Below are positions 118-23,175 of a stretch of DNA of 32,000 bases, piece after piece. The position numbers were made by a program, and so were the translations under genes. Below the pieces are notes generated by a model, which saw only the letters and a list, made by a program, of their open reading frames with translations, did not search any database and was not told the DNA's origin. The stretch is from Nostoc sp. PCC 7120 = FACHB-418 (GTDB taxonomy: Bacteria > Cyanobacteriota > Cyanobacteriia > Cyanobacteriales > Nostocaceae). Numbering within the stretch: the stretch's first letter is position 1; the number at the start of each line of letters is the position of its first letter. The stretch is from NCBI RefSeq assembly GCF_000009705.1, contig NC_003240.1, forward strand, positions 90,001-122,000. The letters are read 5' to 3'.

Positions 118-135
118 ATGAAATCTGGATGAAAT
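118..135 (-). promoter_or_regulatory. Direct-repeat box, copy a (ATGAAAT ctgg ATGAAAT as read on + strand)
   Basis: Two 7-bp half-sites start 11 bp apart (118 and 129) and are followed by a T-run. Orientation matches the six other copies. It lies just past the stop of the DUF2808 gene, so it would face a minus-strand gene beyond the left window edge. Confidence 0.4.
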
Positions 136-161
136 TTTTGATTAACATAAAAATCTACATA

Positions 162-625
162 TTAAAATGTAGGGAATTTAGCTAAACCAATAGGAATTTC
201 TACCTCACTGCCAACAACTTTCACTGAAAAGCGGTATACAGAATCCGGGCCTGTAACTGGTTGTTGAACTTTATTAAAATTAACTAAGAGCTTAGTGTTA
301 GAAATAACCTTTTCAGGGAACTCTATAATAATTTGTCTGCCATTGGCGGAAATATTAGTATTAATTTTCTGATCATTCACATCCAAGACATCAATATCAT
401 TACTCACTGCTACAGTAGATGGAGTTTCAATAATAAGTTGAGAAAGAGCGTTGTTATTTTTGGGGATATTTAACCGAAAAGTATGTTTTACAAAACGCCA
501 GCTATTAGTAGGATATTGCAAATTATTATCAACATAGTCTCCTTAGCATTTGCCTTAGTCATGCAAATGAAAGCTATAGTGCCAAGAGCAAATACTGTAC
601 CTGTGTAAATCCATATTTTCTTCAT
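162..625 (-). pseudogene. DUF2808-family secreted protein, apparently frameshifted between signal peptide and domain
   Basis: ORF 162..521 (TTG-initiated in the track) aligns over its length with the 161-aa paralog at 7766..8251 (SQLIIE.P, F.E.V...T...V..N.V, E.PIG.A). This pattern is typical of cyanobacterial DUF2808. An ATG at 625 opens a signal-peptide ORF (MKKIWIYTGTVFALGTIAFICMTKANAKE...) in a different frame. A TAA at 543..545 closes the domain frame upstream. A 1-nt shift within about 522..542 would be needed to fuse the two. Confidence 0.6.
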
Positions 626-710
626 CTTGAATTGTGAAACAACCATTATGTAAAATAAGTTACAATTTTCTACTGAATAGACCTTTACATAATAAGTTTG
701 ACATGTCAGG

Positions 711-728
711 ATGAAATTAGGGTGAAAT
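711..728 (-). promoter_or_regulatory. Direct-repeat box, copy b (ATGAAAT tagg GTGAAAT)
   Basis: Half-sites at 711 and 722 (11-bp phasing), 86 nt upstream of the ATG at 625. On the minus strand the box is followed after 16 nt by TATTAT (689..694). Flanks resemble copy d (TTGACA..GATGAAAT..GGTGAAATTTT.(G)CTAGTT). Confidence 0.5.
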
Positions 729-968
729 TTTGACTAGTTCAAAAAATAATTTGGTGATGTTGTGATAGTTAGCTAAACCTGAACTAGAACTTTAGTTACT
801 GCAACAAAAAATTCAATATTTTCAGTCTCAAGAACTAACAAGATCGTGGAAATCAGTTGTGGATGATATTAAAAAATCAGGCTTTTAGTTGTAAAAGTAC
901 AATTAAAAGTCCGATTCTGCATCAAAGCATAAGTATAAAAGGCTCAATAATAGTATAGAGACATCAAA

Positions 969-986
969 GTGAAATTAAGATGAAAA
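969..986 (-). promoter_or_regulatory. Direct-repeat box, copy c (GTGAAAT taag ATGAAAA)
   Basis: Half-sites at 969 and 980. The core is nearly identical to copy e (GAAATTAAGATGAAAA). It lies between the TPR gene stop (1042) and the DUF2808 pseudogene. TATACT/TACTAT follows 11-13 nt downstream on the minus strand. Confidence 0.4.
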
Positions 987-1041
987 TTGAGCATGACTAA
1001 AGAGAAAATTAGTGTTTACTATCATTCACCCGAACAAATTA

Positions 1042-1719: not shown

Positions 1720-1779
1720 GGCTTTACCCCTTCATTCTTGCAGCATGACATTGGATTGCCACGGATCTGTTCCTTTATT

Positions 1780-3108: not shown

Positions 3109-3176
3109 TTACTTTGCCATGAAATATTCTCATATTCTTTTCATAATCCCAGAAAATGTAGAATAAACATCAACCA

Positions 3177-3515
3177 TTAGGCAAGTAGGGATGTTGTAGG
3201 TGTAACCATCAGCATAATTAGCCCAACCCGAAGATCGGGAGAGTTGCGTAGGAAAATACCTCCCAATCCCCAAACAAAAACAGGTGTCCAAATAAAGTTC
3301 ATGCCCAAAATCAATCCGGTCATCTTGTAATTTTGAAATGCCTGACCTAAATGATTAAGTGGAATATTTAAAAATACTCCATAGAGCATAACCATCAAGG
3401 ATGGAACAATTAGGAATACAGCATTTTCCTCAACCCATTTAATTCGTCCCAATATCAGCCCGATTAAGATAGCAATAATGAAAAATCCAGATTGGAGTTT
3501 TTCAGTAAAACTCAT
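3177..3515 (-). pseudogene. N-terminal fragment (about one third) of a BASS/ACR3-superfamily permease (arsenic-resistance-protein-like)
   Basis: The 112-aa ORF starts MSFTEKLQ.. and has three TM segments, laid out like the N-terminus of roughly 300-350 aa ACR3/bile-acid:Na+ symporter-type proteins. It ends (..MVTPTTSLLA*) where the conserved P-C-T type motif region would continue. Only 68 nt separate its stop from the mntH start, so the remainder is missing. Confidence 0.45.
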
Positions 3516-3879: not shown

Positions 3880-4071
3880 ATGACTAATTTTTCTTCTACT
3901 TCAGTGTTGCGGAAGACCGCAGGTATTACTTTGTCTAAACCTGTACAAGTAACACTTTATATGCTGCTGTCTTCTTTGGTTATCTGGACTGTTTTGTTCT
4001 CTACCTATCCTGCGGCTCATAACACGGCACATTCAGCGCGTCACCACACTTTAGGCGTTGCGTGTCATTAA
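3880..4071 (+). CDS. CbtB-like small membrane peptide with His-rich C-terminus (putative cobalt/nickel transporter subunit family)
   Basis: 63 aa with one TM helix (VTLYMLLSSLVIWTVLF) followed by AAHNTAHSARHHTLGVACH. This matches my recollection of the CbtB family C-terminal pattern (..HD.AHD.RH...FPCH). GAGG lies 7 nt upstream of the ATG. Confidence 0.5.
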   Translation: MTNFSSTSVLRKTAGITLSKPVQVTLYMLLSSLVIWTVLFSTYPAAHNTAHSARHHTLGVACH

Positions 4072-4228: not shown

Positions 4229-4246
4229 ATTTTGCTTTGATTTCAT
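4229..4246 (+). promoter_or_regulatory. Degenerate, opposite-orientation copy of the direct-repeat box (ATTTTGC tttg ATTTCAT)
   Basis: Read on the + strand it matches the reverse complement of the box (ATTTCAC-N4-ATTTCAT) at 5/7 plus 7/7 positions with 11-bp phasing. That is the orientation expected for the + strand gene starting at 4376 (130 nt downstream). This copy is weaker than the seven minus-oriented ones. Confidence 0.25.
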
Positions 4247-4375: not shown

Positions 4376-5542
4376 ATGAAAAAATATCGACTGTTTGGGG
4401 CGATCAGTGCTGTTTGTGTTGCATTGTCAATTCTTTATTCCTTTGTAGGAGTTTCCCAAACTCCTACACCCAGAGTACAACTCTCTACCAACCCACCTTT
4501 AGAACAGATTCATCCCTTTGAAGCAGGAACAGATAAACCACAATCTCCAGTTACACTAACGCTACAAGCTCTTGATGCTATAGGTAAACCCTTAGAAAAT
4601 ACCAAAATTAGCTTACAAATTCTGACACCACCACCTAATCCTTGGTTGACTACAGATTTCCCCATTGTCGAGGGAACAAAATTACTACAAATGGATGCGG
4701 CTGCACCTGATGGTAAGTTAGAAATTCAGCAGATGTTACCTATCCGTGGGAACTACCAACTGCGGGTAAATGTGTCACCCTTAGTAGCAAATGCTTTTAC
4801 CCCCTATGAACAAACCTTGAATTTGAATATCCAAGAAAATCCAGTTAAATACAAATATTTTGCTGTTTTTGCAGCTATCTTACTATCAGTTGGATTATTA
4901 GGTGGTTGGGTTATCGGCGGACAAGAAGAACTACGACAAGGAGAAATTGCGCCGCAATCTGTGCGTCTGTTGTTAAGTGCATTGACAGTGGTGGCTATAG
5001 TAACTTTATTGTTTATTAACATTAGTGCAGAAGTTGCAGAGGCTCACGGTAGTGGACACTCAAGCGGTAAAGAAGAAATCGCACCATCAGTCCAAAAATC
5101 TCAAGGGTTGGAAGTCCGTGTTGAGGGAAATAAAAGCGCAACGGTAGGAAAACTTGCTAATTTGATAGTAAATGTTAAAGATGCTGCCACAGGACAACCC
5201 ATCAAGGATGTAGTGTTGCAGGTGAAGGCGATCGCTCTAGAAGATAATTTAACAGTCTTTGCCTACAAGGGAGTTACTGACCAATTCGGCAAGTTAACGT
5301 GGCAAGAGCAATTTTTTGATGGCGCACCTCACAAAGTTGAGGTCGAAGCAACTCCTAGCCCTGGATCTAAGCGTCAATTTCCACTGGTGAAAGTCGCACA
5401 AGAAGTTGAAGTTGAAGGAATTGCACCGCCAATGTACATCCGGTTGATTGGTTTATTCTACTTTACTGCTATTGTCGGCATTGGTATGGCGATGGGATTG
5501 CTAATACAGCATCGACGAAAACCACAAGCTAGGGCAAATTAA
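4376..5542 (+). CDS. Membrane protein with two periplasmic beta-rich modules, each followed by a TM helix; His-rich linker
   Basis: Signal/anchor sequence at the N-terminus. Module 1 spans about residues 30-155, then TM (YFAVFAAILLSVGLLGGWVIG), a second TM (LLLSALTVVAIVTLLFI), then AEAHGSGHSSGKEE. Module 2 follows (LEVRVEGN..ANLIVNVKDAATGQPIKD..), then a C-terminal TM and a basic tail. No enzymatic motif was seen. Confidence 0.6.
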   Translation: MKKYRLFGAISAVCVALSILYSFVGVSQTPTPRVQLSTNPPLEQIHPFEAGTDKPQSPVTLTLQALDAIGKPLENTKISLQILTPPPNPWLTTDFPIVEGTKLLQMDAAAPDGKLEIQQMLPIRGNYQLRVNVSPLVANAFTPYEQTLNLNIQENPVKYKYFAVFAAILLSVGLLGGWVIGGQEELRQGEIAPQSVRLLLSALTVVAIVTLLFINISAEVAEAHGSGHSSGKEEIAPSVQKSQGLEVRVEGNKSATVGKLANLIVNVKDAATGQPIKDVVLQVKAIALEDNLTVFAYKGVTDQFGKLTWQEQFFDGAPHKVEVEATPSPGSKRQFPLVKVAQEVEVEGIAPPMYIRLIGLFYFTAIVGIGMAMGLLIQHRRKPQARAN

Positions 5543-5611
5543 AAGCATCAACGCTTGACACTACACCGTATCAATATTCCTAAAATGCCCAGTTCCAAAA
5601 ATGTAGCACTA

Positions 5612-5619
5612 GCGATCGC
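5612..5619. repeat. HIP1 octamer GCGATCGC (one example of many)
   Basis: Exact GCGATCGC. Further copies were seen near 1243, 1547, 2722, 5233, 5653, 5757, 5808, 10161, 14270, 17345, 19250, 20344, 26548, 26643, 27015 and 31645. This is a cyanobacterial genome hallmark. Confidence 0.9.
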
Positions 5620-7019
5620 TAACCCAAATCCAGATCCCTCAGTACGATGCGAGCGATCGCTTCGTCTGTCAAGGGTAAGTGAAGGATGAAAGTGCTACCC
5701 TTACCAACTTGGCTTTGCAACTGTATACTACCTCTATGAGCCTGAACAATTGCTTGAGCGATCGCTAATCCCAATCCAGATCCACCAGTACGACGCGAGC
5801 GATCGCTATTGACTCGATAAAAACGGTCAAAGATCCGCTTTTGCTCGTGCGATGCAATACCAATACCTGTATCTTGAACTTCAATTACAGCATTACCGTT
5901 GCTGCGTTTGAGGATAACAGTTACATAACCGCCAGCAGGGGTATATTGAATAGCATTGGCAATTAGATTAGAAAGCACACGCAACAGTTGATCTTCATCT
6001 CCCATCACGTATAAAAGCTCTTGGCATAACACCAAAGATGTTAGTTGCAAAGAAGCCGCAGCCGCTAACGCTGAAAATTCTTCTATTAGGTCATTAATCA
6101 AAATATTCAGACAGCAATGTACTTGTTGTGTCGCCAGCGTTTGCTGTTCCAATCGAGACAGTAACAGCATATCCTGAACTAGTTCAGCTAGTCGATGATT
6201 CTGACGTTGAATAGATGCCAAAACATCTCGCGCCTCGTCAGACAGATACTCCATATCAAATAAAGTTTCTACCGTTGCATTAATCGCTGCAAGAGGAGTA
6301 CGCAACTCATGAGAGGCATCAGACGTAAACTGTTGCATTTGTTTATACGAAGAGTCAATTGGTCGCATTGCTAACCCTGCCAGCCACCAACTAGAACCGC
6401 CAACTAACAATACCGTAATTGGCAATCCCACGGCCAAAATTAATTTCAAAGCAGCGAGACGATTATCAAGGTCATTGAGATTGCGCCCTACCTGAATATA
6501 GCCCCAATCTTGATTATCTTGAGTGTGCAGCAGTAGAGACTTTTGACTATAACGATTACCTTGCAAGTCTTTGACTATTTGCCACACTTGAGTTTCCACA
6601 GTCGGGGGCAATTCATTAGGTTGGAAACCTGCCACTGCAATTAACCGTCCTGAACCATCGACAAAACGGATGTAATATTGCTTATCTTTGTATACAGTAC
6701 TAAAAATGCCGTGTTCATTATGGGTGCTTTGACTGTGACTCAGGATATTTTGGGTAGGACAACTGGACTCAGCTAAACAAATATTTGGTAAAACCTGCTG
6801 GAAAACTAGCTCTGTAATACCAGGTTGTTTCAAATTTGGTTCAATTACATCATGTAGTGTACCTGCGACCGATTCCAGTTCCCGGTTGATAGAAGCCACA
6901 TAAGCATCAATGATTACCTCATAAACCACAAAACCGCATAAGGATAGAATCAGAGCCATAACTACCGCATACCAGGTAGCCAATTGCCAGCGAGTCTTAC
7001 GAAATAGTCGAATCTGCAT
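5619..7019 (-). CDS. Sensor histidine kinase (two TM helices flanking a periplasmic domain; HisKA + HATPase_c)
   Basis: TM1 WYAVVMALILSLCGFVVY and TM2 LILAVGLPITVLLVGGSSWWLAGL. H-box SDASHELRTPLAAI. N/G boxes NLIANAIQYTP, DTGIGI, GGSGLGLAIA. Overlaps the upstream response-regulator gene by 23 nt. Confidence 0.9.
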   Translation of the reverse strand: MQIRLFRKTRWQLATWYAVVMALILSLCGFVVYEVIIDAYVASINRELESVAGTLHDVIEPNLKQPGITELVFQQVLPNICLAESSCPTQNILSHSQSTHNEHGIFSTVYKDKQYYIRFVDGSGRLIAVAGFQPNELPPTVETQVWQIVKDLQGNRYSQKSLLLHTQDNQDWGYIQVGRNLNDLDNRLAALKLILAVGLPITVLLVGGSSWWLAGLAMRPIDSSYKQMQQFTSDASHELRTPLAAINATVETLFDMEYLSDEARDVLASIQRQNHRLAELVQDMLLLSRLEQQTLATQQVHCCLNILINDLIEEFSALAAAASLQLTSLVLCQELLYVMGDEDQLLRVLSNLIANAIQYTPAGGYVTVILKRSNGNAVIEVQDTGIGIASHEQKRIFDRFYRVNSDRSRRTGGSGLGLAIAQAIVQAHRGSIQLQSQVGKGSTFILHLPLTDEAIARIVLRDLDLG

Positions 7020-7734
7020 TGCCAGGATTGAAACGATAACCCATACTAGGGACAGTTTCGATTAGCCCATCACAACCATATTCCGATAATTTGCGTCGCA
7101 AAAGTCGGATTTGAGCTGCTACTACATTACTAACGCGTTCTGCACTAAAGGCGTACAGATGATTTAAAATTTGGTCGCGGGTAATAACTGTATTAGGACG
7201 TTTCATCAAGTATTCTAATAATTGAAATTCTTTTTTTGTTAAATAAATTACCTTATTTTCACCATTCGGGTACTGTCGAGAAATCGTACAATTACCGCAG
7301 TCTAGGATAAGACCACCAACTTGCAATTGTAAAGGCTGGAACTGAGACGTAAGCGATGCGCCTCCTAAAGCAGATCGCCGTTGCAATGCACGCAATCGTG
7401 CCAACAGTTCTGCCATGCCAAACGGCTTGATTAGATAATCATCTGCCCCTGCATCTAGACCAGCTACCTTATCTGCCATGCTATCTTTAGCAGTTAGCAT
7501 CAGCACTGGTAAAGCATTACCCCGATTCCTTAAACGTTTACATAGTTCTATCCCTGACATTCCTGGTAACAACCAATCAAAGATTGCCAGTGTATATTGA
7601 GTCAAATCATCTTCTAAATAAATCCAGGCTTCGTTTCCATCCAAAACCCAATCAACAACATATTTTTCTTTACTCAACTTTCGCTGAATCGACGCACCCA
7701 AATCTGGCTCATCTTCAACAAGCAGAACTTTCAT
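6997..7734 (-). CDS. OmpR/PhoB-family response regulator (receiver + winged-helix DNA-binding domain)
   Basis: MKVLLVEDEPDLG..., phospho-acceptor context AIFDWLLPGMSG, LTAKD, K in DDYLIKPF. C-terminal winged helix (LTKKEFQLLEYLM..V.TRDQIL...., MGYRF). Confidence 0.9.
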   Translation of the reverse strand: MKVLLVEDEPDLGASIQRKLSKEKYVVDWVLDGNEAWIYLEDDLTQYTLAIFDWLLPGMSGIELCKRLRNRGNALPVLMLTAKDSMADKVAGLDAGADDYLIKPFGMAELLARLRALQRRSALGGASLTSQFQPLQLQVGGLILDCGNCTISRQYPNGENKVIYLTKKEFQLLEYLMKRPNTVITRDQILNHLYAFSAERVSNVVAAQIRLLRRKLSEYGCDGLIETVPSMGYRFNPGNADSTIS

Positions 7735-7765: not shown

Positions 7766-8251
7766 TTAAATTACACGCAATTGAGCGACACCAATTGGTA
7801 ACTCTGCATTCATACCAGTGAGAATAGTAGATATCTTGTAGAACTTATCACCAGTAGTCACTGCTGTTTTTTTAACATTATTCATTTCTACAATGATAGT
7901 AGTTCCAGGAGCGACTGATTCGGCAAACTCTAGCGTAGCTTTTTTGCCTTGAATAGAAACTTTTGCCGCAATTTCTTTACCAGATTGCTCGGACACATCA
8001 ATGCTTTCTCTGAGGACAATATTAGCTGGAGCTTCGATAATTAGCTGAGAAATAGCCTTGCTGTTTTCGGGAACTGCTATTTTTAAAGTATGTCTGAGAA
8101 TTCTCCAGTGGCGAATACCTTGAGGAGATTCCCCTAAGCTAATAACGTGAGGAAAGTTACTAGATTGTGGTGTAGGATTTGCATAAGTAGCTGGAACTAA
8201 AACTGCCATAGTCAAGGCAAAAATAGCAGTATATCTCAGTATTCTAATCAT
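7766..8251 (-). CDS. Secreted DUF2808-family protein, first gene of the DUF2808-RR-HK operon
   Basis: Signal peptide MIRILRYTAIFALTMAVLVPATYA. Mature part is paralogous to 162..521. Only 31 nt separate its stop from the response-regulator start. Confidence 0.75.
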   Translation of the reverse strand: MIRILRYTAIFALTMAVLVPATYANPTPQSSNFPHVISLGESPQGIRHWRILRHTLKIAVPENSKAISQLIIEAPANIVLRESIDVSEQSGKEIAAKVSIQGKKATLEFAESVAPGTTIIVEMNNVKKTAVTTGDKFYKISTILTGMNAELPIGVAQLRVI

Positions 8252-8341
8252 TGCGTTTTTATAATCACTTTACTAGATCCATAAATCATTAGAATCATCT
8301 TCGTTAAAAGATGTTACCTCTTAATAGCTTGACAAAGTGAG

Positions 8342-8359
8342 ATGAAATTTGGGTGAAAT
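8342..8359 (-). promoter_or_regulatory. Direct-repeat box, copy d (ATGAAAT ttgg GTGAAAT)
   Basis: Half-sites at 8342 and 8353, 91 nt upstream of the ATG at 8251. On the minus strand the box is followed after 15 nt by TATTAA (8321..8326). That places the proximal half-site where a -35 element would be. Confidence 0.55.
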
Positions 8360-8541
8360 TTTAGCTAGTTACAGGAATTTATTAAAAAAAACAAATAAGT
8401 GACCTTTGATAGAGCTATGACGTTTTCCTACAACGCATCTCTTTATAGTTTCAAAGCTCTGTCTAACCTTGTTTCAACTTATAACGATATTGACAAAAAG
8501 TTGAAGAAGCAAGATGTTCGTACTGATGTTTTGTCATACAT

Positions 8542-9513
8542 TTAACTGAAAATATACTCTCGTAGATTTGTTTGGCAACGACGGAGGTAACTCAGTGCTT
8601 GTTTTTCTAAGTAACGAACTCTCCTTTCACTAATGTTGAGATGTTGAGCTACCTGCGTCAAAGTGAGTTCATAATTATCTTCCAAGCCATAATGCAAAAT
8701 TAGGACTTGTTGCTGCTGTGGAGTTAATTCTCTCAGTGAGAGATAGATATCTTGACGCATTAAATTTTGAGTCACTTGGATTTCAGGCGAGGTTTCTGGA
8801 ACTTCTGTTAAAAGTTCTTGCAATTCTGTGTCTTCGTTATCGCCCACTTGTTTATCTAATGAAGCAGGTTGACGAGATATCATCAGCAGTTCGCGGATTT
8901 GAGCAGGGTTTAATTTCATCTTTTCTGCAATTTCATCTGCACTAGGACTGCGTTTTAATTTCTGAGATAATTCTCTTTGTACTTTTTTAAATTTATTCAA
9001 CTTTTCGGTAATATGAATTGGCAGTCTAATAGTTCGTGATTGCTGAGATATTGCTCGTGTCATTGCCTGGCTAATCCACCAATAAGCGTAGGTAGAAAAT
9101 TTATAGCCACGAGTGGGGTCAAATTTCTCTACGCCACGTTCTAAACCTAATGAACCTTCTTGAATTAAATCCATTAACTCCAAATTTCTTCTTTGATATT
9201 TTTTGGCAATAGCAACCACTAAACGAAGATTTGCTACCATCATTTTTTGCTTTGCCTGTGTACCTTGCTGAAAAATATCCTTCACTTCTATTTCACTAAG
9301 CTGTACATATTTGGCTAATTCTTTTTGAGAGGGTTCGTGGTTGAGTTGTTTCTTCAAAGTTTCCTTCTTCTTCTGTAACACCATCATCTGCTGTACCTGT
9401 TTGCTATATACAATTTCTTCCTCATGAGTCAACAATGGTACCCGAACAATATCTTGCAGATAATTCCGAACTATATCTGTGCTGAATTTAGTATTTGAAG
9501 TTGTTGTAATCAT
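8542..9513 (-). CDS. Group-2 (RpoD-like) sigma-70 factor
   Basis: 323 aa. Region 2 motifs [40 protein letters not shown]. Region 3 RTIRLPIH. Region 4 [25 protein letters not shown]. Paralog of 15714..16712. Confidence 0.9.
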
Positions 9514-9848
9514 AATGTGGTGATTTTACCTATTCGAGCTTCAAAATAAACACTTTGCTCAAATCTTTTGAGTTCTGCTAAAGCTTTTTCTTCTTGAGAA
9601 TAATTTAAGAAAATATTTAACTCTTGTGAATTCCAAAACTTCTCAATTAGGGGAGCAATGAAAAAGTTTCTAGAAAGCTGATTTATAAGTAATGGAACTA
9701 CAATCAGAATTAACAGAAAACGGAGGGAGGAAATTGTTTGCAGTCGAGAAGCGCGAAACTCTTCAATAACCTTTGCTTCGGCATTTGGATCTAACGTGTG
9801 TTGAAATTGTCCTATCGTCCGCAGGATAGAGCGAGTAATAAAGCTCAT
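9510..9848 (-). CDS. Small single-TM protein resembling the N-terminal region of CemA/PxcA, translationally coupled to the sigma factor
   Basis: The 112-aa sequence ..[53 protein letters not shown]....[19 protein letters not shown].. follows the pattern I recall for cyanobacterial PxcA/CemA upstream of its polytopic core (FR.SRY......K.LL.LI.VP.L..QL.K.F...PL......FLN...EE.A..EL..FEE). Its TGA overlaps the sigma ATG (ATGA at 9510..9513). Confidence 0.5.
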
Positions 9849-9994
9849 CTTTTGAGATGATGACTTTTATTTCATCTTAATTTATAAGCATCAAAATTAT
9901 AGTTGCACCCATAATTTAGTGAGACAACTGTGGTGTTTTAAAAACCTATAAGATTTAAACTTTAAATCTCTAAATTCTACTTTACAAAAATAGG

Positions 9995-10012
9995 ATGAAA
10001 TTAAGATGAAAA
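9995..10012 (-). promoter_or_regulatory. Direct-repeat box, copy e (ATGAAAT taag ATGAAAA)
   Basis: Half-sites at 9995 and 10006, 147 nt upstream of the ATG at 9848. On the minus strand the box is followed after 15 nt by TAGAAT (9974..9979). Confidence 0.5.
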
Positions 10013-10203
10013 GTCAGTATTTTATAGATTTTTTTCTAAATTTAGTTATTTTGGTATATATTAAAATCAGCAAATTTACTTAAATAACTATTACTTTGGG
10101 GATTTGTTCTCACAAAGCTAAGATGATTAGGTATTCGGTTACAGTAATTGCTCTAAATGCGATCGCCACCAAATTCTCTCTTTATATGCTCAACTAAATT
10201 AAT

Positions 10204-11118
10204 TTAAACCACGTTTTCTTGAGCAAGAGGACATGGATAACTTGGATCGCCTGTTTCTATGTGAATTGTAGTGTGTTCGATACCAAAATGGTCGTGAAGT
10301 TGTTGATTTACCTGAACTAAAAAAGCATCACTAAGATTTCCAGCAGGCATAATTAAGTGAGCAGTGAGAGCTGTTTCTGTGGTACTCATCGCCCAGATGT
10401 GCAAGTCATGAATACTAGATACACCGGGAAGTTCAGCTAAGAATGTACGGACTGCAAGTGGTTCAATACCTGCTGGTACTGCATCTGTGACTAAGTTCAA
10501 AGATTCTTGGAATAATTGCCAAGTACTCACAATAATCACGACAACGATCATCAAACTTACAACTGGGTCAAACCATAGCCAACCAGTAGCAACAATCGCA
10601 ATACCAGCCAGGACTGCACCCAAAGACACCGCCGCGTCAGCAACTAAGTGAATAAAGGCTCCCCTAATATTCAAGTCTCTTTCACGACCAGATAAGAACA
10701 TTAAGGCACTTCCCATATTGATGGCAATACCTACCGCAGCCACGCCGATAATTGTACTACCTGATACTGGACTAGGTTGAGCAAAACGCTGTATGGCTTC
10801 CCAGGCAACTGCGCCAGAAGCTACGAGTACGAGAACAGCGTTCAAAAGAGCTGCCAAAATAGAGGAGCGACGTAACCCATAAGTGCGGCGTGGTGTTGGT
10901 TGGCGACGGCCGAGGAAGCTCGCTCCCCAGGCAAGTAACAAACCTAGAACATCACTCAAATTGTGACCAGCATCGGCAAGTAGGGCAAGGGAATTGGCAG
11001 CTAACCCATAAACTACTTCAATGACAACAAATCCAGTGTTGAGAGCAACGCTAATAATGAAGGCACGGTTGTAATTAGTCGGTTCGTGGCTGTGTCCGTG
11101 ACTGTGACTGTGAGACAT
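10204..11118 (-). CDS. czcD: Cation diffusion facilitator (CDF) Zn/Co/Cd efflux protein
   Basis: His-rich N-terminus MSHSHSHGHSHE. TM2/TM5 metal-site motifs (LLADAGHNLSDV and HLVADAAVS). Six TM segments plus a C-terminal cytoplasmic domain. Confidence 0.9.
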   Translation of the reverse strand: MSHSHSHGHSHEPTNYNRAFIISVALNTGFVVIEVVYGLAANSLALLADAGHNLSDVLGLLLAWGASFLGRRQPTPRRTYGLRRSSILAALLNAVLVLVASGAVAWEAIQRFAQPSPVSGSTIIGVAAVGIAINMGSALMFLSGRERDLNIRGAFIHLVADAAVSLGAVLAGIAIVATGWLWFDPVVSLMIVVVIIVSTWQLFQESLNLVTDAVPAGIEPLAVRTFLAELPGVSSIHDLHIWAMSTTETALTAHLIMPAGNLSDAFLVQVNQQLHDHFGIEHTTIHIETGDPSYPCPLAQENVV

Positions 11119-11199
11119 GAATATTGCCCTTAAAGCGTTACCAACGGCGACAGAACTTCTATGTTTTGACGTTATCTTCTTGCTACCACTTGCTATTAA

Positions 11200-11733
11200 T
11201 TATCGCTTGAAGGTAAAACGACTATTAAATTTTTCACCTTTTACATCCGTTTGAATCACAACTTTATACTCTCCCGTTGCAGTTCCGTCCAGGTTTGCCG
11301 TATAATGCTTTTCCTCGGTATTATAAGGAACTTGTAGAGTTTTATTAGTGCCATCTGGTAGCTGAACTTGAGCCGTGAGCTTGGCATCAGTAATTGCTTG
11401 GTCTTGCTCGCCGTGTACGCTGATATCTAAATGAGTAGAATCTTTTTCTATATCTGATTTGAACTCTAAATGATATTTGCCTGACTGTACAACTTGACCG
11501 CTATGCTTCTCTCCACTATTGGAGTGACCACCTTTTTCATCATGGCCATGACCGTCGTTTTCATTATGCACTTCCCCAGTTTTAGTAGATGTTTCTGTAG
11601 TTGCTGTTTTAGCAACGGGTTCAGTTTTAGTAGCACTTTCTGAGTTAGCGACTTGATTCCCACCACTACAAGCACCCAAAAAAATTAATCCTACACTGCT
11701 AAGAATTACTAAACTGGTTTTCAGAAATTTCAT
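11200..11733 (-). CDS. His-rich lipoprotein with a C-terminal beta-sandwich-like domain (putative periplasmic metal-binding protein)
   Basis: Lipobox LIFLGAC-SGG. His-rich tract HNENDGHGHDEKGGHSNSGEKHSG. Then alternating beta-strand pattern (YHLEFKSD..HLDISVHG..AKLTAQVQLPDG..YKVVIQTDV). Located 81 nt upstream of czcD on the same strand. Confidence 0.7.
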   Translation of the reverse strand: MKFLKTSLVILSSVGLIFLGACSGGNQVANSESATKTEPVAKTATTETSTKTGEVHNENDGHGHDEKGGHSNSGEKHSGQVVQSGKYHLEFKSDIEKDSTHLDISVHGEQDQAITDAKLTAQVQLPDGTNKTLQVPYNTEEKHYTANLDGTATGEYKVVIQTDVKGEKFNSRFTFKR

Positions 11734-11768: not shown

Positions 11769-11903
11769 CTAAAAACTTGCCTCTCCTACGGGAGTAATTA
11801 AAAATCCCCCTGGTGCATTGGCATTGGCTGCTTGTGCTGCCTTGGTGACATCATCAAGAGAAACATTAAACGCCGAGTCAGCATTAACTTTATCTAGGAT
11901 GAC
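11769..11903 (-). pseudogene. Relic F2 of a CzcA-like RND gene (about 45 codons)
   Basis: The minus-strand translation VILDKVNADSAFNVSLDDVTKAAQAANANAPGGFLITPVGEASF* matches residues about 194-240 of the intact pump at 18102..21278 (VLVDPAKLKAFDVSLEDVTTAAAKANNNAAGGFLIDPDQE). Identity is 20/30 over the FNVSL..E stretch. Not listed in the ORF track. Confidence 0.7.
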
Positions 11904-11911
11904 AGACCGGA

Positions 11912-11929
11912 ATGAAATTCAGGTGAAAT
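11912..11929 (-). promoter_or_regulatory. Direct-repeat box, copy f (ATGAAAT tcag GTGAAAT)
   Basis: Half-sites at 11912 and 11923, 179 nt upstream of the lipoprotein ATG (11733). On the minus strand TAGATA (11891..11896) follows after 15 nt. The box abuts relic F2. Confidence 0.5.
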
Positions 11930-12138
11930 TTTTACAAGGGAGAGTTCAGGTGATAAGCTACGCTCCATCGTAGGAGATCGCGATTCCTTTAGTCCTTTTT
12001 TGAAATCCATAACTAATTATCATTGGGCTATTGAACATTAATGAGTTGCTGTGAATGAGTCAGCTAAATGTTAAAATAATGACGCTATTTGTGTAATTAT
12101 CATATTTTTTGGATTAGGTTGAGCAGCAGAGGTAAGTG

Positions 12139-17653: not shown

Positions 17654-18082
17654 TTAATTCTCCAAAACCACCCCAGCTACCTTACCATTTTCCTCAACAG
17701 CCGCTCTTCGCTTAGGTAATAAAAACCTACCAAACTTAGAATATAAAGCAGGTAAAACCAGCAAGGTTAACGCTGTAGAAGTAAACAAACCACCTAAAAC
17801 CACTATCGAAAGTGGTTGCAAAACTTCCTTACCTGGACCGACTGCAATTACTAACGGTACTAATCCCAGAGCGGATGTAAAGGATGTCATCAAAATAGCA
17901 TTGAGTCGTTCCATTGACCCGGTTATAATAATTTCTTTTAACGACATTCCGCTAGAAAATTTAGTAGCGTAATTGTCTACTAAAAGCAATCCGTTACGAG
18001 TAGCAACACCAAATAAAGTCACAAAACCTACCAAGGAAGCGACTGAGACAACGCCCCCAGTTAGTGCCACAGCAATTACACC
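17654..18082 (-). pseudogene. Relic F3: C-terminal about 140 codons of a second CzcA-like RND gene, directly behind the intact pump gene
   Basis: GVIAVALTGGVVSVASLVGFVTLFGVATRNGLLLVDNYATKF...LQPLSIVVLGGLFTSTALTLLVLPALYSKFG parallels the last two to three TM segments of 18102..21278 (..LGGGILSVASMVGFITLFGVATRNGLLLVENYNSKF..LQPLAIVVLGGLFTSTALTLLVLPALYSKFG). Homology starts right after an in-frame TGA (18083..18085), 17 nt from the intact gene's stop. The DNA is diverged, so this is not a recent tandem copy. Confidence 0.8.
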
Positions 18083-18101
18083 TCAGGGCGAACGCATCTT
18101 A

Positions 18102-21100
18102 TTATCTCCTTTTGCTATTGTTGAGAATACTTAAATCTTGACTCGTAGTTATTTCTGAAGCGATACCCGTTTGAATTGCTGGGGAAGTTTGTTTGGGTAT
18201 TAAATACGTGCCAAATTTACTATACAAAGCTGGAAGTACCAACAAAGTTAAAGCTGTGGAAGTAAATAAACCACCCAACACAACTATCGCTAAAGGTTGC
18301 AAAATTTCTTTACCCGCACCAGTCCCGATTACTAAAGGAACCATACCTAATGCAGATGTTAGGGCTGTCATTAAAATGGCAACAAGTCTTTCGATTGAAC
18401 CTTGGGAAATTACTTCCCGCAAAGGCATTCCGATCGCAAACTTGCTGTTATAGTTTTCTACTAGCAATAAACCGTTACGGGTAGCGACACCAAATAAAGT
18501 AATAAATCCTACCATTGATGCTACCGAAAGGATACCACCACCCAAAGCCACAGACAAAACACCCCCAATCAATGCTAAGGGTAAGTTACTCATAATTATT
18601 AAGGTTGCTGGGATTGATTTCACGGCGAAATACATCAAAACCGCAATTACAATCATTGATAAACTGCCAAATACCAGTAAATTTTGGGAAGCTCGTTGTT
18701 CCGATTCAAACTGCCCCCCATACTGAATAAAGTAACCAGATGGTACTTGTACTTGCTGTTGAACTTTGGCGCGAATTTCATCTACCACCGAACCCAAATC
18801 TCTACCAGAAACGTTTGCAGAAACAACTATCAAGCGGGAAACATTTTCTCGGTTAATGGTATTCGGACCAGTTCCATAGTCAATTTTTGCTACTGCTGCT
18901 AAAGGTATTTTCTGTTCGTTGGGAGTGTCCACAAGTAAATTACGAATGGTGTCTAAGTTGTTGCGTGCTTCTGGTTTTAACCACACCAATAAGTCAAAAA
19001 GCTGCTGTTTTTCTAATACCTGGGATACTACCCGACCATTGAGTGCAGTTTCGGTAATTTCTGATAAATCGCCTACAGAAAGACCGTAACGTGCCGCAGC
19101 ATCTCTGTCAAACTGAATTTGCACCTGTTTGATAGGTATTTGCGGTTCTAACTGCAAGTCTACTAAACCAGGAATATCTTTCATTACAGCTTCTACTTCT
19201 TTCCCCAAAGCACGTAACTCCTCCAGTTCCGGACCGAATATTTTCACGGCGATCGCACTTCTGACACCGGATAAAATTTCATCCATGCGGTGAGAAATGA
19301 AACCTCCGATAGCTGCTACTGAACCGGGTATTCTCGCAAACTCTTCCCTCACTTTTTCTACCGTTGCTTCCCGATCCTTCATCCCCACATCGCTAATCTC
19401 GATATCGAGGTGGGTTAAGTTGACAGGTGCAGCATCTGCATCTCCTGGAGCGCGTCCCGAACGCATCTGCACTGATGCAATGCGGGGGTCATCTTTGAGT
19501 GCTGATTCAATTGCGTTTCCTGCTTGGTTGGTAACTTCCAAAGATGTACCGGGATATAGCAGCAGGGAATTTACTAAAGTCCGTTCTTGGAATTCCGGTA
19601 AAAACACTCGTCCCAAACTCGAAAAAATCACCATTGATGCTACAAAGGCTGCAATTGCGGTCAAAATTACCACACTAGGGCGTTTGATCGAAAAGTTCAA
19701 CAGGGGACGATATAATCTTTGCGACCAACGAGTTACCCAAGTTTCATCATCTGGTAGTCTTTGGTTGGCTAGCAGTATGGCACACAATGCCGGAGATAAA
19801 GTCATTGCCACTAAGGTTGAAGACAAAATTGATACCAAGTAAGCCCAACCCATCGGAGCGAAAATCCGACCTTCTATGCCACTTAAAGTAAAAATTGGCG
19901 CGAAAACTACAACAATAATTACTGTGGAAAGAATGACGCTGGTTCGTACTTCTACAGAAGTGTCATATACTATTTGGAAAGGATGAACGGGATTTTCTGC
20001 TTTCTGGTTTTCCTGTAATCCCCGGTAACAATTTTCCATATCAACAATAGAATCATCCACAACCGAACCGATGGCGACTACCAATCCTCCCAAGGTCATA
20101 GTATTAATCCCTTGACCAAATAAATTGAGAATCATCATCCCAATTAACACCGACAAAGGAATAGCGCTGAGGGTGATAATAGCAGTCCGCCAGTTCATCA
20201 AAAACATCAGCAGAATAATTGAAACAATTATCGTGCCATCCCTCAGAGAACTAGTCACATTTTCTATAGCATCTTCAATAAAGCTTTCCTGACGAAAAGT
20301 AACCGTGTATTTGACATTGGCAGGTAAGCTAGATTTGAGTTCTGCGATCGCCGTTTCCACAGCCCGACTTACAGTCGGAGTATCAGCTTGGGGTTGTTTA
20401 TCAATTAAAACTACCACCGCAGGCTGAGTATTAAAACTGCCATCACCCCGCTTTAATGCTGCACCAATTTGCACATCAGCAATATCGCGTAAAAGTACAG
20501 GAGTACCATCACGGGCAGTAATCACTGATTTCTGTAAATCCTCAATTGCCGTAATCCTGCCAATACCCCGAATTAATAATTCTTGGTCTGGGTCAATTAA
20601 AAATCCACCAGCCGCATTATTATTAGCTTTGGCAGCAGCGGTGGTGACATCTTCTAAAGAAACATCAAAAGCTTTTAACTTTGCAGGGTCAACTAAAACT
20701 TGATATTGACGGACATCTCCCCCATAGGTGATTACCTGAGAAACACCTGGAACTGCAAGTAGACGGTTGGTGACAACTAGGTCAATAAATCGTCTCACCT
20801 CCATCATGTCGGTTTTAGCTTTTCCCCCTGGCGAATCGATAGTAAAAGCATAGGTAAGGATGGTACCGATGGGATTACTAATTGGGGAAATTTGGGGTGA
20901 CTCGATATTTGCTGGCAGTTTTTGCGACGCTTGCTGCAATCTTTCGGTGACTAGCTGACGCGCTTGATAAATATCAGTTCCCCAATTGAATATAATTCTG
21001 ACAACAGAAATCCCAATTCCAGAGGAAGAACGTACAGTTTCGACACCGGGAGTCCCATTGACAGCACTTTCAATCGGTAAAGTCACCAAAGATTCTACCT

Positions 21101-21278
21101 CTTCGGGTGCTAGTCCTGGTGCTTCGGTTTGAATTTCTACTTGAGGCGGAGCAAAGTTAGGAAAAACATCCAAAGGCATTTGAGTTAGGTTGTAAACTCC
21201 TAACATCATCACAATCATTGCTCCAATCACCACCAGCCATCGTTGTACAATTGACCACTTGAGAATGTTATCGATCAT
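18102..21278 (-). CDS. czcA: Heavy-metal-efflux RND pump, CzcA/CusA family
   Basis: 1058 aa with 12-TM RND architecture and two large periplasmic loops. Family motifs VDDSIVDMEN, GRIFAPMG, ATRNGLLLVENY. Located 9 nt downstream of the membrane fusion protein gene. Confidence 0.9.
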   Translation of the reverse strand: MIDNILKWSIVQRWLVVIGAMIVMMLGVYNLTQMPLDVFPNFAPPQVEIQTEAPGLAPEEVESLVTLPIESAVNGTPGVETVRSSSGIGISVVRIIFNWGTDIYQARQLVTERLQQASQKLPANIESPQISPISNPIGTILTYAFTIDSPGGKAKTDMMEVRRFIDLVVTNRLLAVPGVSQVITYGGDVRQYQVLVDPAKLKAFDVSLEDVTTAAAKANNNAAGGFLIDPDQELLIRGIGRITAIEDLQKSVITARDGTPVLLRDIADVQIGAALKRGDGSFNTQPAVVVLIDKQPQADTPTVSRAVETAIAELKSSLPANVKYTVTFRQESFIEDAIENVTSSLRDGTIIVSIILLMFLMNWRTAIITLSAIPLSVLIGMMILNLFGQGINTMTLGGLVVAIGSVVDDSIVDMENCYRGLQENQKAENPVHPFQIVYDTSVEVRTSVILSTVIIVVVFAPIFTLSGIEGRIFAPMGWAYLVSILSSTLVAMTLSPALCAILLANQRLPDDETWVTRWSQRLYRPLLNFSIKRPSVVILTAIAAFVASMVIFSSLGRVFLPEFQERTLVNSLLLYPGTSLEVTNQAGNAIESALKDDPRIASVQMRSGRAPGDADAAPVNLTHLDIEISDVGMKDREATVEKVREEFARIPGSVAAIGGFISHRMDEILSGVRSAIAVKIFGPELEELRALGKEVEAVMKDIPGLVDLQLEPQIPIKQVQIQFDRDAAARYGLSVGDLSEITETALNGRVVSQVLEKQQLFDLLVWLKPEARNNLDTIRNLLVDTPNEQKIPLAAVAKIDYGTGPNTINRENVSRLIVVSANVSGRDLGSVVDEIRAKVQQQVQVPSGYFIQYGGQFESEQRASQNLLVFGSLSMIVIAVLMYFAVKSIPATLIIMSNLPLALIGGVLSVALGGGILSVASMVGFITLFGVATRNGLLLVENYNSKFAIGMPLREVISQGSIERLVAILMTALTSALGMVPLVIGTGAGKEILQPLAIVVLGGLFTSTALTLLVLPALYSKFGTYLIPKQTSPAIQTGIASEITTSQDLSILNNSKRR

Positions 21279-21287
21279 GATTGTAGT

Positions 21288-23000
21288 TTATGAGTCAGAA
21301 TGATTTTTTGAGGTGGATTTGAGCAGACCACTTTGAGTTTTTGGTTCGTGATGATTATTTTCAATTTCATTAAGATTTTGATATTGAATTTCTTCTAACT
21401 CCGGTGATGTAACAGATTCATTACCCAACCCTCCAGCGTAAGCTGCAACCATGTAGTTTTGGCTACGACGACCAGACCAGATACCTACTACAAAAGCACC
21501 ACCAGCAACTACAGTTCCTCCCAAGGTAGCCATTAACCATAAAGGTAGGGGAAAATTATTAGTATTAGTTTTTTGCAATTGCGAACCTTCATCTTCCGAG
21601 TGGTCATCTTCTTTTTTACTCCCACCCCGTAAAGATTGAGCGTAAAGTTGCGTAGCACGTTGGGTAACTACTGCATCTCCCTCAAATAAACCACTGGTAA
21701 CTTCGATTAAACTCCCAGAAATTTGACCAAATTCAGGTTCAACAGATTGAAAAGCATTACCATTTTTGACGTAGATGATTTTTTTACCATTGGCATCTAC
21801 CACAGCAGAATTAGGAATTGCTAAAATTAACCCAGGTGTCTTATCCGTAACTACTTCCAACTCGGCAAACATACCTGGTTTTAATTGCCCGTTGGCATTA
21901 TTAATTTCAGCTTGTACGGGTACTACTTGCGTTTCTCCTTCTACTACGGAACCAATGCGCTTAATCCTACCTGTAAAAATTTGATTGGGTACGCTAGCAA
22001 CCTTTACATTCACTGGTTGACCAATTTTTACTTTACCCAAATCTTTTCCATAAATATTTGCTGTAGCAAAAACCTCGCTGTCATTAGCTATGGTCATCAA
22101 CTTGCTACCCGTATCTTGAAATGATTGTCCGATAGTGACTTGCCTGTCAGTAACTTGACCATTGATAGGAGCCGTCACCGTTACCAATCCCTTATTATTA
22201 GCAATAGCTCCTAGTTGAGCTAATCGAGTTTGATAAGTAGTATTACTCAGATTAATCCGTTCTTTTGCTACCTTTACTGCTGCTTGAGCGCGTTGAACTT
22301 GATTTTCTGCTTCGATCACATCTCCCCGACGATTGGCTTTAACTAGTTCGGCTTTGGCTTGCGCTAATTGAGTTTGAGACTCTAAAGCCGTGCGACGCGG
22401 TAAAGCACCATTAATCACCAATGACTGGTCTTTGTTATATTTTTCTTGAGCAAATGCGACTTGACTTTGTGCTTGGGCTATTTCTGCTTGAGCGATATTT
22501 TGATAGCGATTGTAATTTTGTTGGGCCAACTTTAAATCAGCCAAAGCTTGTTGTAAATCTGCTTGACCTTGTACTAATTTTTCCTGGGATTCAACCCGCA
22601 AATTCACGAAGTCAGGGCTACTTAAAACCGCAACAGGTTGACCTTTTGTGACCCTTGCACCTGGTTCTACCAACAACTCAGCCACCTTCGCTCCAGAAAT
22701 TGGGGTAGTAACTTCTACTTTCTGACTGGGTAAAGTTTCGATTTTACCCGTCGTTTTAATACCAATATCCAAACGCTGACGTTTGACAGTCTCAACTTTT
22801 ATTCCCAATCCTTTCGCAGTTTGTTCGTCCACTTCTACTTGTCCGCTTGCTTCGCTACCAGCTTGAAACGCACCACTGCCGTGGTCGTGACCTGCACCTG
22901 CTAAAACAGTAGTAGGAGTATTTAGTAGTAACAAACTCAACATTGTCAACGAAACATAACGCAGTGGAGCAGAACATTGAAACAAATTAGAGATTCCCAT
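21288..23000 (-). CDS. RND membrane fusion protein (HlyD/CzcB family) with His-containing N-terminus and an extra C-terminal TM helix plus tail
   Basis: Signal/anchor, then GAGHDHGSGAF. Lipoyl/barrel-sandwich and long coiled-coil hairpin (AQQNYNRYQNIAQAEIAQAQSQVAFAQEKY..). C-terminal extension: DDHSEDEGS, then TM WLMATLGGTVVAGGAFVVGIW, then about 70 polar residues. Confidence 0.85.
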   Translation of the reverse strand: MGISNLFQCSAPLRYVSLTMLSLLLLNTPTTVLAGAGHDHGSGAFQAGSEASGQVEVDEQTAKGLGIKVETVKRQRLDIGIKTTGKIETLPSQKVEVTTPISGAKVAELLVEPGARVTKGQPVAVLSSPDFVNLRVESQEKLVQGQADLQQALADLKLAQQNYNRYQNIAQAEIAQAQSQVAFAQEKYNKDQSLVINGALPRRTALESQTQLAQAKAELVKANRRGDVIEAENQVQRAQAAVKVAKERINLSNTTYQTRLAQLGAIANNKGLVTVTAPINGQVTDRQVTIGQSFQDTGSKLMTIANDSEVFATANIYGKDLGKVKIGQPVNVKVASVPNQIFTGRIKRIGSVVEGETQVVPVQAEINNANGQLKPGMFAELEVVTDKTPGLILAIPNSAVVDANGKKIIYVKNGNAFQSVEPEFGQISGSLIEVTSGLFEGDAVVTQRATQLYAQSLRGGSKKEDDHSEDEGSQLQKTNTNNFPLPLWLMATLGGTVVAGGAFVVGIWSGRRSQNYMVAAYAGGLGNESVTSPELEEIQYQNLNEIENNHHEPKTQSGLLKSTSKNHSDS

Positions 23001-23157
23001 CGCTTGTTGTGTCCTAAGTTAGTGAGAAAGCAGAATCGCCGGATGTTGGCATTTAATGTGCAAATTTGGACTACCGCTTTCTTTAGCTAGTTACATTGCT
23101 TTTGTGAGTAGTTTAAGGAATTTGAATAGTAGTCTTTTTCCAGTGTTTCATATCGAT

Positions 23158-23175
23158 ATGAAATTTGGGTGAAAT
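23158..23175 (-). promoter_or_regulatory. Direct-repeat box, copy g (ATGAAAT ttgg GTGAAAT)
   Basis: Half-sites at 23158 and 23169, 158 nt upstream of the membrane fusion protein ATG (23000). The proximal half-site is also the right arm of a perfect 18-bp palindrome TTTCATATCGATATGAAA (23146..23163). Confidence 0.5.

Follow-up and report, generated by a model that had tools for sequence, protein, structure and literature searches.

Seven copies of a short direct repeat, each placed in front of minus-strand genes, raise the question of which protein reads them and which genes they bring under common control in the 32-kb stretch of DNA analysed here at its full length (the window). The repeat, hereafter the box, is made of two heptads separated by 4 bp (ATTTCAY-N4-ATTTCAT when read toward the genes). 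A preliminary description of the window had seen in it the mark of one regulon covering most minus-strand operons, and the core of that reading is supported. Each box is, in all likelihood, a predicted operator for the OmpR/PhoB-class response regulator (RR) of the RppA family (CopR/NrsR-type) that is encoded within the same group of operons (Table 1).

The pattern RTGAAATNNNNRTGAAAW has exactly seven matches in the window, all on the plus strand and with the coordinates and sequences first listed for them; 100 dinucleotide-preserving shuffles of the window yielded none. A 38-nt position weight matrix (PWM), encompassing the box and its flanks and trained on genomes other than the source, returned the same seven sites only, with scores of 18.9-47.4 bits as compared to a maximum of 11.5 in 30 Markov-shuffled windows. 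All seven boxes lie between open reading frames (ORFs), in a single orientation and directed at minus-strand genes, as had been noted. The range of 86-344 nt to the start codons is also correct, given that boxes b and c are both measured to the start, at 625, of a frameshifted DUF2808 gene. Box a had been assigned to a gene lying left of the window. This gene was found on a metagenome contig (L001/L085), which is the same contig as the window and extends further left: box a faces a 162-aa DUF2808 gene just beyond the window edge (L085 10622-11110). The left flank harbors two further boxes of the same orientation, one before another DUF2808 gene and the other before a DUF305-YHS-P1B-ATPase operon, making nine boxes in ~26 kb. 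The spacing of boxes c, b and a is kept in loci L015, L017 and L023. A degenerate copy in the opposite orientation, proposed at 4229-4246, did not survive: it is a two-mismatch match, of which ~4.6 are expected by chance, and it falls under the PWM threshold. A generic scan for sigma-70 promoters and terminators was uninformative (49 promoter-like sites as compared to 47 expected), and Rfam searches identified no riboswitch or small RNA near the boxes.

Table 1. Two-component genes, boxed operons and predicted boxed promoters of the window (positions counted from its first nucleotide; PWM scores in bits)
Feature	Position (strand)	Description	Box and -10	Box to start codon (nt)	Score or domain evidence
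rppA	6997..7734 (-)	OmpR-family response regulator, CopR/NrsR type; proposed box binder			Pfam Response_reg and Trans_reg_C
rppB	5619..7019 (-)	membrane sensor histidine kinase; overlaps rppA by 23 nt (6997-7019)			HisKA and HATPase_c
DUF2808 gene	7766..8251 (-)	first gene of the regulator operon, the place that CopM holds in copMRS; predicted secreted beta-sandwich			
operon e	8542..9848 (-)	truncated CemA/PcxA-like gene (9510-9848) and group-2 sigma factor (8542-9513)			
operon f	10204..11733 (-)	FixH-like lipoprotein (11200-11733) and CDF cation-efflux transporter (10204-11118)			
operon g	18102..23000 (-)	membrane fusion protein (21288-23000) and CusA/CzcA-family HME-RND pump (18102-21278)			
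promoter a	102..138 (-)	faces the DUF2808 gene left of the window	box 118-135, ATTTCAT-CCAG-ATTTCAT; extended -10 TGCCAAACT at 102-110		PWM 42.4
promoter b	695..731 (-)	upstream of the DUF2808 pseudogene	box 711-728, ATTTCAC-CCTA-ATTTCAT; extended -10 TGTCAAACT at 695-703	86	PWM 45.7
box c	969..986 (-)	upstream of box b	TTTTCAT-CTTA-ATTTCAC; no TGnnAnnnT at the standard spacing	344	PWM 18.9, weak
promoter d	8326..8362 (-)	predicted autoregulatory promoter of the DUF2808-rppA-rppB operon	box 8342-8359, ATTTCAC-CCAA-ATTTCAT; extended -10 TGTCAAGCT at 8326-8334	90	PWM 47.4, top site
promoter e	9979..10015 (-)	precedes operon e	box 9995-10012, TTTTCAT-CTTA-ATTTCAT; -10 TAAAGT at 9979-9984	146	PWM 27.7
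promoter f	11896..11932 (-)	precedes operon f	box 11912-11929, ATTTCAC-CTGA-ATTTCAT; extended -10 TGTCATCCT at 11896-11904	178	PWM 42.6
promoter g	23142..23178 (-)	precedes operon g and possibly serves the genes after it	box 23158-23175, ATTTCAC-CCAA-ATTTCAT; extended -10 TGAAACACT at 23142-23150	157	PWM 40.0

The box is not restricted to the window. A genome scan with the regulator provided 80 loci with RR identities of 65-97%, in hosts belonging to the Nostocales, to Microcoleus and other Oscillatoriales-type genera, to the Coleofasciculaceae and to the unicellular genera Gloeocapsa and Chlorogloea. The box set, drawn from 81 RR-centred loci, comprises 223 boxes, 209 of which share the orientation of the RR gene; over the 1.39 Mb of these loci, exact matches number 212 in the orientation of the RR gene, as compared to 14 in reverse. 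A motif as frequent in coding DNA as outside it, or oriented at random, had been named beforehand as incompatible with the regulon. The boxes instead avoid long ORFs and are co-oriented with the genes downstream: only 8 of 223 fall inside ORFs of at least 100 aa, although such ORFs make up 82% of the sequence (p about 1e-147), 96% being located outside, and 218 have a same-strand ORF start within 600 nt downstream (median 99 nt). Conservation before orthologous DUF2808, efflux and sigma factor genes, put forward as a check, is observed. The genes found behind the 223 boxes encode DUF2808 proteins (80, as 78+2), membrane fusion proteins (MFPs; 24), the RR itself (21), RND pumps (18), CemA (14), DUF305 proteins (11), FixH-like lipoproteins (9) and group-2 sigma factors (8), followed by smaller groups of YtkA-like lipoproteins, pyridine-nucleotide disulphide oxidoreductases, DUF411, cysteine-synthase-like and DUF326 proteins. 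To note, the box e type recurs: TTGTAAAGT is found on 10 of the 14 boxes located upstream of CemA genes in other loci, with the same type of box and -10 as promoter e.

The complete 177.7-kb plasmid pANACY.02 illustrates how confined the boxes are. All 11 PWM matches are located in the metal-resistance region at 6.7-48.7 kb, each before a co-oriented gene, and the remaining ~135 kb hold no PWM match, even though a MerR-type (heavy metal-responsive) regulator, an RND pump and a P-type ATPase are clustered there. This plasmid (L084) carries a second rppAB pair preceded by a box at 31675 (-), while a divergent box at 31949 (+) faces a cysteine-synthase-family operon. Tandem boxes were found as well in locus L088, where two of them, at 9897 and 9959 (-), lie 62 nt apart before a DUF305-MFS operon. 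A metagenome scan with the pattern of box plus extended -10, performed without RR selection, gave 157 matches on 120 contigs; 79 of these 157 precede genes of the regulon families, and most of the others lie on AT-rich non-cyanobacterial contigs and have ill-fitting spacers.

Read toward the genes, the conserved element extends beyond the box as AAA-ATTTCAY-N4-ATTTCAT-N7-TGnnAnnnT, with a hexamer starting 10 bp past the box, and the window copies align as AAA-ATTTCAY-N4-ATTTCAT-N7-TGTCAAnCT. The profile is built on the 223 instances, of which 207 are unique; strict de-duplication leaves 132 promoters. Counting the first base of the box as 0, only T+25, G+26, A+29 and T+33 are informative outside the heptads among the 207 unique instances (1.2-1.6 bits each). 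In 85% of the 132 non-redundant promoters, a sequence nAnnnT starts at +28, hence 10 bp past the box, and in 73% the TG three bases ahead is present too. TG, A and T are found together at +25/26, +29 and +33 in 96 of the 132, adjacent positions being uninformative. Purines are enriched 7-9 nt past T+33, which fits a transcription start there. The TG, the A (-11) and the T (-7) probably represent the signature of an extended -10; the heptads would then lie at about -40 to -23, in promoters devoid of a -35. As part of the RppA-operator model, and with the same good confidence, the boxed promoters are predicted to be activator-dependent.

The preliminary description had placed the box where a -35 element would be and had pointed to -10-like hexamers 15-16 nt after it. 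The first part stands, as the box replaces the -35. The second does not: such hexamers exist in the window, but TAnnnT occurs at that place (+33/+34) in only 14 of the 132 non-redundant promoters, and the conserved -10 is the extended one found 10 bp after the box. TGTCA was also considered as a third half-site and rejected, as its distance from the second heptad is 13 bp instead of 11 bp and the two inner positions vary (TGAAACACT, TGAGACATT, TGCAATACT) while TG, A and T are fixed.

The same alignments bear on the idea that the boxes are cores of a miniature inverted-repeat transposable element (MITE) or of another dispersed repeat of intergenic DNA, without any regulatory role. Five copies do share ~45 nt at 67-78% identity (family D2), the island resides on mobile plasmids and a transposase is encoded in the window. 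However, similarity stops ~3 nt upstream and ~34 nt downstream of the box start, the flanks carry ~0.1 bit, no more than 45 nt are shared and terminal inverted repeats are lacking, so that the longer repeat feared in the preliminary description is not what surrounds the boxes. Conservation is position-specific (TG, A, T), unlike that of a decaying copy; orientation and distance to the gene are fixed in hosts from several cyanobacterial orders, and the same element is present in experimentally regulated promoters of Synechocystis. The probability of a MITE origin is close to negligible.

A -10-like part within the element, together with two group-2 sigma factors encoded in the island (8542-9513 and 15714-16712), the first one behind box e, might also suggest that one of these factors reads the element directly and that the RR is not the binder. 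Against this, direct heptads phased by 11 bp and devoid of a -35 are the architecture of OmpR/PhoB operators, only 8 of the 223 boxes precede sigma genes while the RR operon is boxed in most loci, and the element is found in the Synechocystis cop and nrs promoters, with no annotated sigma gene in the pSYSX cop region examined. Direct reading by a sigma factor is therefore hard to credit.

The assignment of the regulator and kinase to the RppA/RppB family is clear-cut. The regulator reaches 371.4 bits against the NCBIfam RppA equivalog NF041734 (cutoff 250), and the kinase 642.6 bits against the RppB equivalog NF041735 (cutoff 400). The next best family for the regulator is PhoB, at 171 bits for a cutoff of 296 (143 vs 270 for a second PhoB model); the RpaB model gives 135 bits for a cutoff of 330, and the OmpR and CusR-type models likewise remain well under their cutoffs. 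RppA/RppB is another name for Synechocystis NrsR/NrsS (sll0797/sll0798). In a 2026 review, nrsBACD and rppAB are listed as activated by RppA (sll0797). The regulator is 60% identical to CopR of the Synechocystis plasmid pSYSX and the kinase 49% identical to CopS, both over the full length, and PGAP names the response regulator and kinase of pSYSX RppA and RppB as well. In Synechocystis, copMRS is described in plasmid and chromosomal copies (PMC4335983), and the pSYSX RppA/RppB genes would fit copR/copS of the plasmid copMRS of that article.

Two other cyanobacterial or bacterial systems were tried and rejected as owners of the box. The HLR1 consensus consists of 8-bp (G/T)TTACA(T/A)(T/A) repeats with a 2-bp spacer. 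The box differs from it, and the regulator is not RpaB as judged from the score above. A Pho regulon (PhoB/SphR) is not supported either: the regulator is no PhoB equivalog, and the heptad ATTTCAY differs from CTGTCAT, the E. coli Pho consensus. The preliminary description had held the box to differ from HLR1 and from cyanobacterial Pho boxes. Across 89 RR copies, the recognition helix of the regulator, SNVVAAQIRLLRRKL, shows conservation mostly of 95% or more, and this conserved helix matches the conserved box. That the neighbouring RR binds an OmpR/PhoB-type direct-repeat operator, as had been proposed, is favored by its Response_reg and Trans_reg_C domains, by the RppA/RppB equivalogs and by the occurrence of the same box in the cop and nrs promoters; binding itself stays at the level of a prediction.

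These Synechocystis promoters provide the most direct connection to a known system. The PnrsB promoter, in its published sequence (Englund et al. 2016, Supplementary Table 1), contains TTTTCACCTGAATTTCAT, that is TTTTCAC-CTGA-ATTTCAT, identical to box f at 17 of 18 positions. On pSYSX, PcopM2, upstream of the DUF305 gene copM, holds ATTTCATCCTGATTTCAT-N7-TGCCAGACT (PWM 43.4), and PcopB2, upstream of the MFP gene copB, holds ATTTCATCTTGGTTTCAT-N7-TGAAACACT (PWM 25.7); the PWM was trained without these sequences. The entire box of copM is comprised in the last 72 nt before its start codon. The last nine bases of the PcopB2 element are identical to those following box g, another box in front of an MFP/RND pair, and the RND pump of the window is 72% identical to the RND gene located after copB. 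A passage of PMC4890671 mentions in PcopM [quoted passage not shown], credited to Giner-Lamia 2012. The box had been presented as a motif not described in cyanobacteria; this has to be withdrawn, as it matches the direct repeats of PcopM and also occurs in PcopB and PnrsB. In reviews, copMRS/copBAC are presented as activated by CopR, and nrsBACD/nrsRS by NrsR/RppA. PnrsB and PcopM being inducible promoters in cyanobacterial biotechnology, the refined promoter model (the box and an extended -10 from 10 bp on) bears on them as well.

A mechanism can be proposed along these lines. The membrane kinase RppB would detect excess extracytoplasmic metal and phosphorylate RppA. Two winged-helix domains of RppA would sit head-to-tail on the two 7-bp repeats, 11 bp apart, at about -40 to -23, and the bound regulator would bring RNA polymerase to the extended -10 that starts 10 bp downstream. 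PhoB acts likewise at Pho boxes. The predicted outcome is co-induction of the regulator's own DUF2808-rppA-rppB operon, resulting in positive autoregulation, together with several secreted DUF2808 paralogues, the CopBA-like MFP/HME-RND pump, the lipoprotein and CDF exporter, the CemA-like gene and group-2 sigma factor, and the DUF305(CopM-like)-YHS-P1B-ATPase operon just left of the window. DNA binding, activation as opposed to repression, and the transcription starts are all predictions made from sequence. The autoregulation that had been implied by box d is supported, a box preceding the regulator's own operon in about 60 of the 80 orthologous loci.

Activation has to be weighed against the possibility that the regulator is a repressor occluding the promoter, as ManR does at mntCAB. 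The box covers the would-be -35 region, and the review cited above presents RppA as both a repressor and an activator. In contrast, the lack of a -35 and weak hexamers such as CAAACT leaning on the TG are typical of activator dependence, and the homologous boxed promoters of Synechocystis are described as induced via CopR and NrsR. Repression is very unlikely.

A further alternative, unlikely though less so, is that some or all boxes are served by another RppA paralogue, with two overlapping regulons split by the distal heptad, ATTTCAC or ATTTCAT. On pANACY.02, the promoter of rppA1, whose product is 95% identical to the window regulator, and three other promoters carry ATTTCAC, as opposed to ATTTCAT in the promoters of rppA2, DUF305, CemA and a cysteine-synthase-like gene. 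Likewise, PnrsB is of the C type and PcopM2 and PcopB2 of the T type, while in the window boxes b, d, f and g are of the C type and a, c and e of the T type. This split is not clean, as 4 of the 21 autoregulatory boxes in the clade of RRs with 93-97% identity are of the T type, and the distal heptad was accordingly rejected as a discriminator of RR clades. Moreover, the two pANACY.02 paralogues do not differ in their recognition helices (the pairs being 66% identical), and no second rppA is present inside the window or within 10 kb to its left.

A different motif has been credited to the same regulator family. The sequence 5'-AAMAWCTCYYWCCCC-3' was published as an RppA motif by Yu et al., as cited in the review PMC13421787, and a separate commentary on the source study describes yeast one-hybrid and electrophoretic mobility shift assays with promoters of pigment genes. 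This motif differs from the box in that it contains no direct repeat, and what is conserved beside RppA-family genes is the box: no exact match to the motif was found in 90 loci, and the window holds only chance-level two-mismatch matches. It was accordingly rejected as a conserved operator. In the Synechocystis nrs intergenic region, AAAATCTCCTTCCCC abuts and overlaps the distal heptad on the opposite strand. The literature thus holds a discrepancy between a recently published RppA motif and the element conserved next to RppA-family genes.

Several observations weigh against assigning every box to the window regulator, or against the strength of the counts. The publication of AAMAWCTCYYWCCCC shows that the regulator may bind other sequences too. 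RppA paralogues of the same replicon share the box and have identical helices, and boxes a, c and e may belong to a paralogue encoded elsewhere. No gene of its own separates the weak box c from box b. Among the 223 instances, many promoters are orthologous to one another, and the counts make them look more independent than they are, although 132 are left after strict de-duplication. Finally, the evidence on the metal is mixed: beside the signs of copper, the ZitB-like CDF exporter and the PnrsB-like box f point to Zn, Co or Ni. Binding of the RppA-family regulator to the boxes nevertheless remains the favored explanation.

Copper, possibly with other divalent cations, is only tentatively named as the inducing metal. 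It is the best guess because the RND pump resembles that of the pSYSX cop region so closely and because a CopM-like DUF305 protein, a YHS protein and a P1B ATPase stand behind the ninth box; the DUF411 and DUF326 genes found behind boxes in other loci were counted toward copper too. A wider proposal, rather doubtful at this stage, would make the direct repeat, in preference to the published 15-mer, the main operator used by the RppA/CopR/NrsR family throughout the cyanobacteria. Several paralogous sensor pairs of one replicon, identical in their recognition helices, would share it; such paralogues would not be insulated from each other at the DNA and would converge on a plasmid-borne multi-metal super-regulon, with group-2 sigma factors as its second tier and DUF2808 as its signature member, in the place of CopM.

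The predicted regulon gives DUF2808 proteins a first functional context, as no gene stands behind the box more often than theirs, which also opens the sensor operon. The DUF2808 model is that of a signal-peptide-bearing beta-sandwich (mean pLDDT 77). Fold searches with it returned generic beta-sandwiches only, the best being the hypothetical Thermus protein TTHA1873 (TM 0.57), followed by Ig-like domains of pilins and adhesins, and just one histidine is well conserved. The protein could be a metal chaperone, an accessory protein of the sensor or a protector of the envelope. The DUF2808 gene behind box b (162-625, -) is a pseudogene: homologues align to residues 32-154 (533-165), the ORF spans 162-521, and the signal peptide MKKIWIY... 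(start 625) lies in another frame; box b is nevertheless intact.

The CemA/PcxA-like gene of operon e encodes 112 aa only, covering positions 1-77 of the 229 of the CemA profile, while relatives have a gene of 271 aa. Its stop overlaps the start of the sigma factor gene (9510-9513), and box e is therefore predicted to effectively drive the sigma factor. Plasmid-borne group-2 sigma factors would be metal-induced via an RppA-type regulator. The window encodes a second group-2 sigma factor (15714-16712), besides an OprB porin and an Nramp transporter. This second sigma gene is located downstream of the RND operon and has no box of its own, unlike the first; the two share 296 nt (8960-9255 and 16129-16424) at 76% identity and are paralogues within one island. 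Directly after the full RND gene, an ORF of 138 aa (17654-18070, -) corresponds only to the C-terminal end of an RND protein (ACR_tran 908-1020) and is a gene fragment. A 51-nt direct repeat (5611-5661 and 5757-5807, 90% identical), bounded by AGCGATCGCT (HIP1-like), has one copy inside the kinase gene and the other across its 3' end.

Other genes of the window carry no box. A CbtB-domain gene (3880-4071, +; 63 aa, called on L001 13664-13855) and, after it, a 388-aa ORF without Pfam match (4376-5542, +) may form a cobalt-uptake pair, with neither a box nor an Rfam riboswitch. Two plus-strand ORFs of 215 aa (12136-12783) and 267 aa (12809-13612), without Pfam match, lie between two boxed operons and are kept in related plasmids, where they are annotated as hypothetical. 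An ArsR/SmtB-family repressor gene (24007-24417, -) is divergent from that of an 879-aa P1B ATPase with two HMA stretches (24464-27103, +). No RppA box is present at this pair, which suggests a separate, repressor-based metal circuit next to the two-component regulon. Further right, a group II intron catalytic domain (RF00029, 28080-28157, -; 47.4 bits for a gathering score of 40) is adjacent to a 133-aa ORF without Pfam match (28169-28570, -) and to a 588-aa DUF4277/DDE-transposase-like ORF (28671-30437, -). The right edge of the metal island is thereby marked by a patch of mobile elements.

The island DNA is 88-94% identical to regions of large plasmids from Scytonema, Anabaena cylindrica, Tolypothrix/Microchaete and Nostoc, several of which are typed as conjugative. 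The regulator gene is 96% identical in Hydrococcus rivularis, which lies outside the Nostocales. Copies of the regulator with 94-96% identity are found in H. rivularis NIES-593 (L008), on plasmid1 of Scytonema NIES-4073 (L017) and on pANACY.02. Horizontal transfer seems to carry the entire regulon in one piece.

The published gene order of the Anabaena/Nostoc PCC 7120 plasmid cluster all7605-all7619 fits the window, a likeness based on gene numbers and descriptions only. This cluster contains a kinase, a regulator, sigB3, ‘proton extrusion’ and cation-efflux genes, sigB and the all7619-18-17 RND operon, to part of which the RND fragment at 17654-18070 may correspond. One transcriptome study of PCC 7120 saw joint induction of sigB, sigB3 and the efflux clusters next to them, and All7597, a DUF2808 protein, was found in the exoproteome and is up under Cd stress. 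A 2025 paper describes all7606-05 as a ‘putative homolog of copS/copR’ and as a direct target of FurB (Zur). The Nostocales homologues have so far been no more than ‘putative copRS homologs’, and the box offers for them a testable cis-element and regulon.

In terms of architecture, PhoB of Escherichia coli is a close parallel. The E. coli Pho box consists of two 7-bp direct repeats with a 4-bp spacer, located 10 bp upstream of the -10 in place of a -35. The window element shares with it the 7+4+7 bp direct repeats, the 10-bp gap to the -10 hexamer, the lack of a -35 and a winged-helix Trans_reg_C regulator. The heptads differ, as mentioned above, and the targets are metal-resistance genes, not phosphate genes.

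Synechocystis NrsRS/nrsBACD is another close system: the window proteins pass the RppA/RppB cutoffs, the PnrsB box is nearly that of promoter f, and NrsR is according to reviews an activator with autoregulation. Conversely, a single box serves the divergent nrsRS/nrsBACD region, and its -10 hexamer is 11 nt, not 10 nt, from the box. As expected for the RppA/RppB family, both the regulator's own operon (d) and the HME-RND operon (g) of the window carry ATTTCAY-N4-ATTTCAT.

With CopRS, the common features comprise the RppA/RppB naming and the identities of both proteins, the promoter ATTTCAT-N4-ATTTCAT-N7-TGnnAnnnT, a CopBAC-type HME-RND pump under a boxed promoter (g) that ends in TGAAACACT as PcopB2 does, a regulator operon predicted here to be autoregulated, and a DUF305/CopM-like gene with a box. 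The two systems differ in that the regulator operon of the window does not begin with copM (DUF305) but is headed by DUF2808, DUF305 instead standing first in a boxed operon of its own, ahead of a YHS protein and a P1B ATPase, and in that four window boxes have an ATTTCAC distal heptad. The predicted regulon, with nine boxes, is also much larger and takes in several DUF2808 paralogues, the CDF exporter, the CemA-like protein and a group-2 sigma factor. It is most likely a new and greatly extended member of the CopR/NrsR (RppA) class of metal-responsive two-component regulons, familiar from Synechocystis, and the motif itself is not of a new kind.

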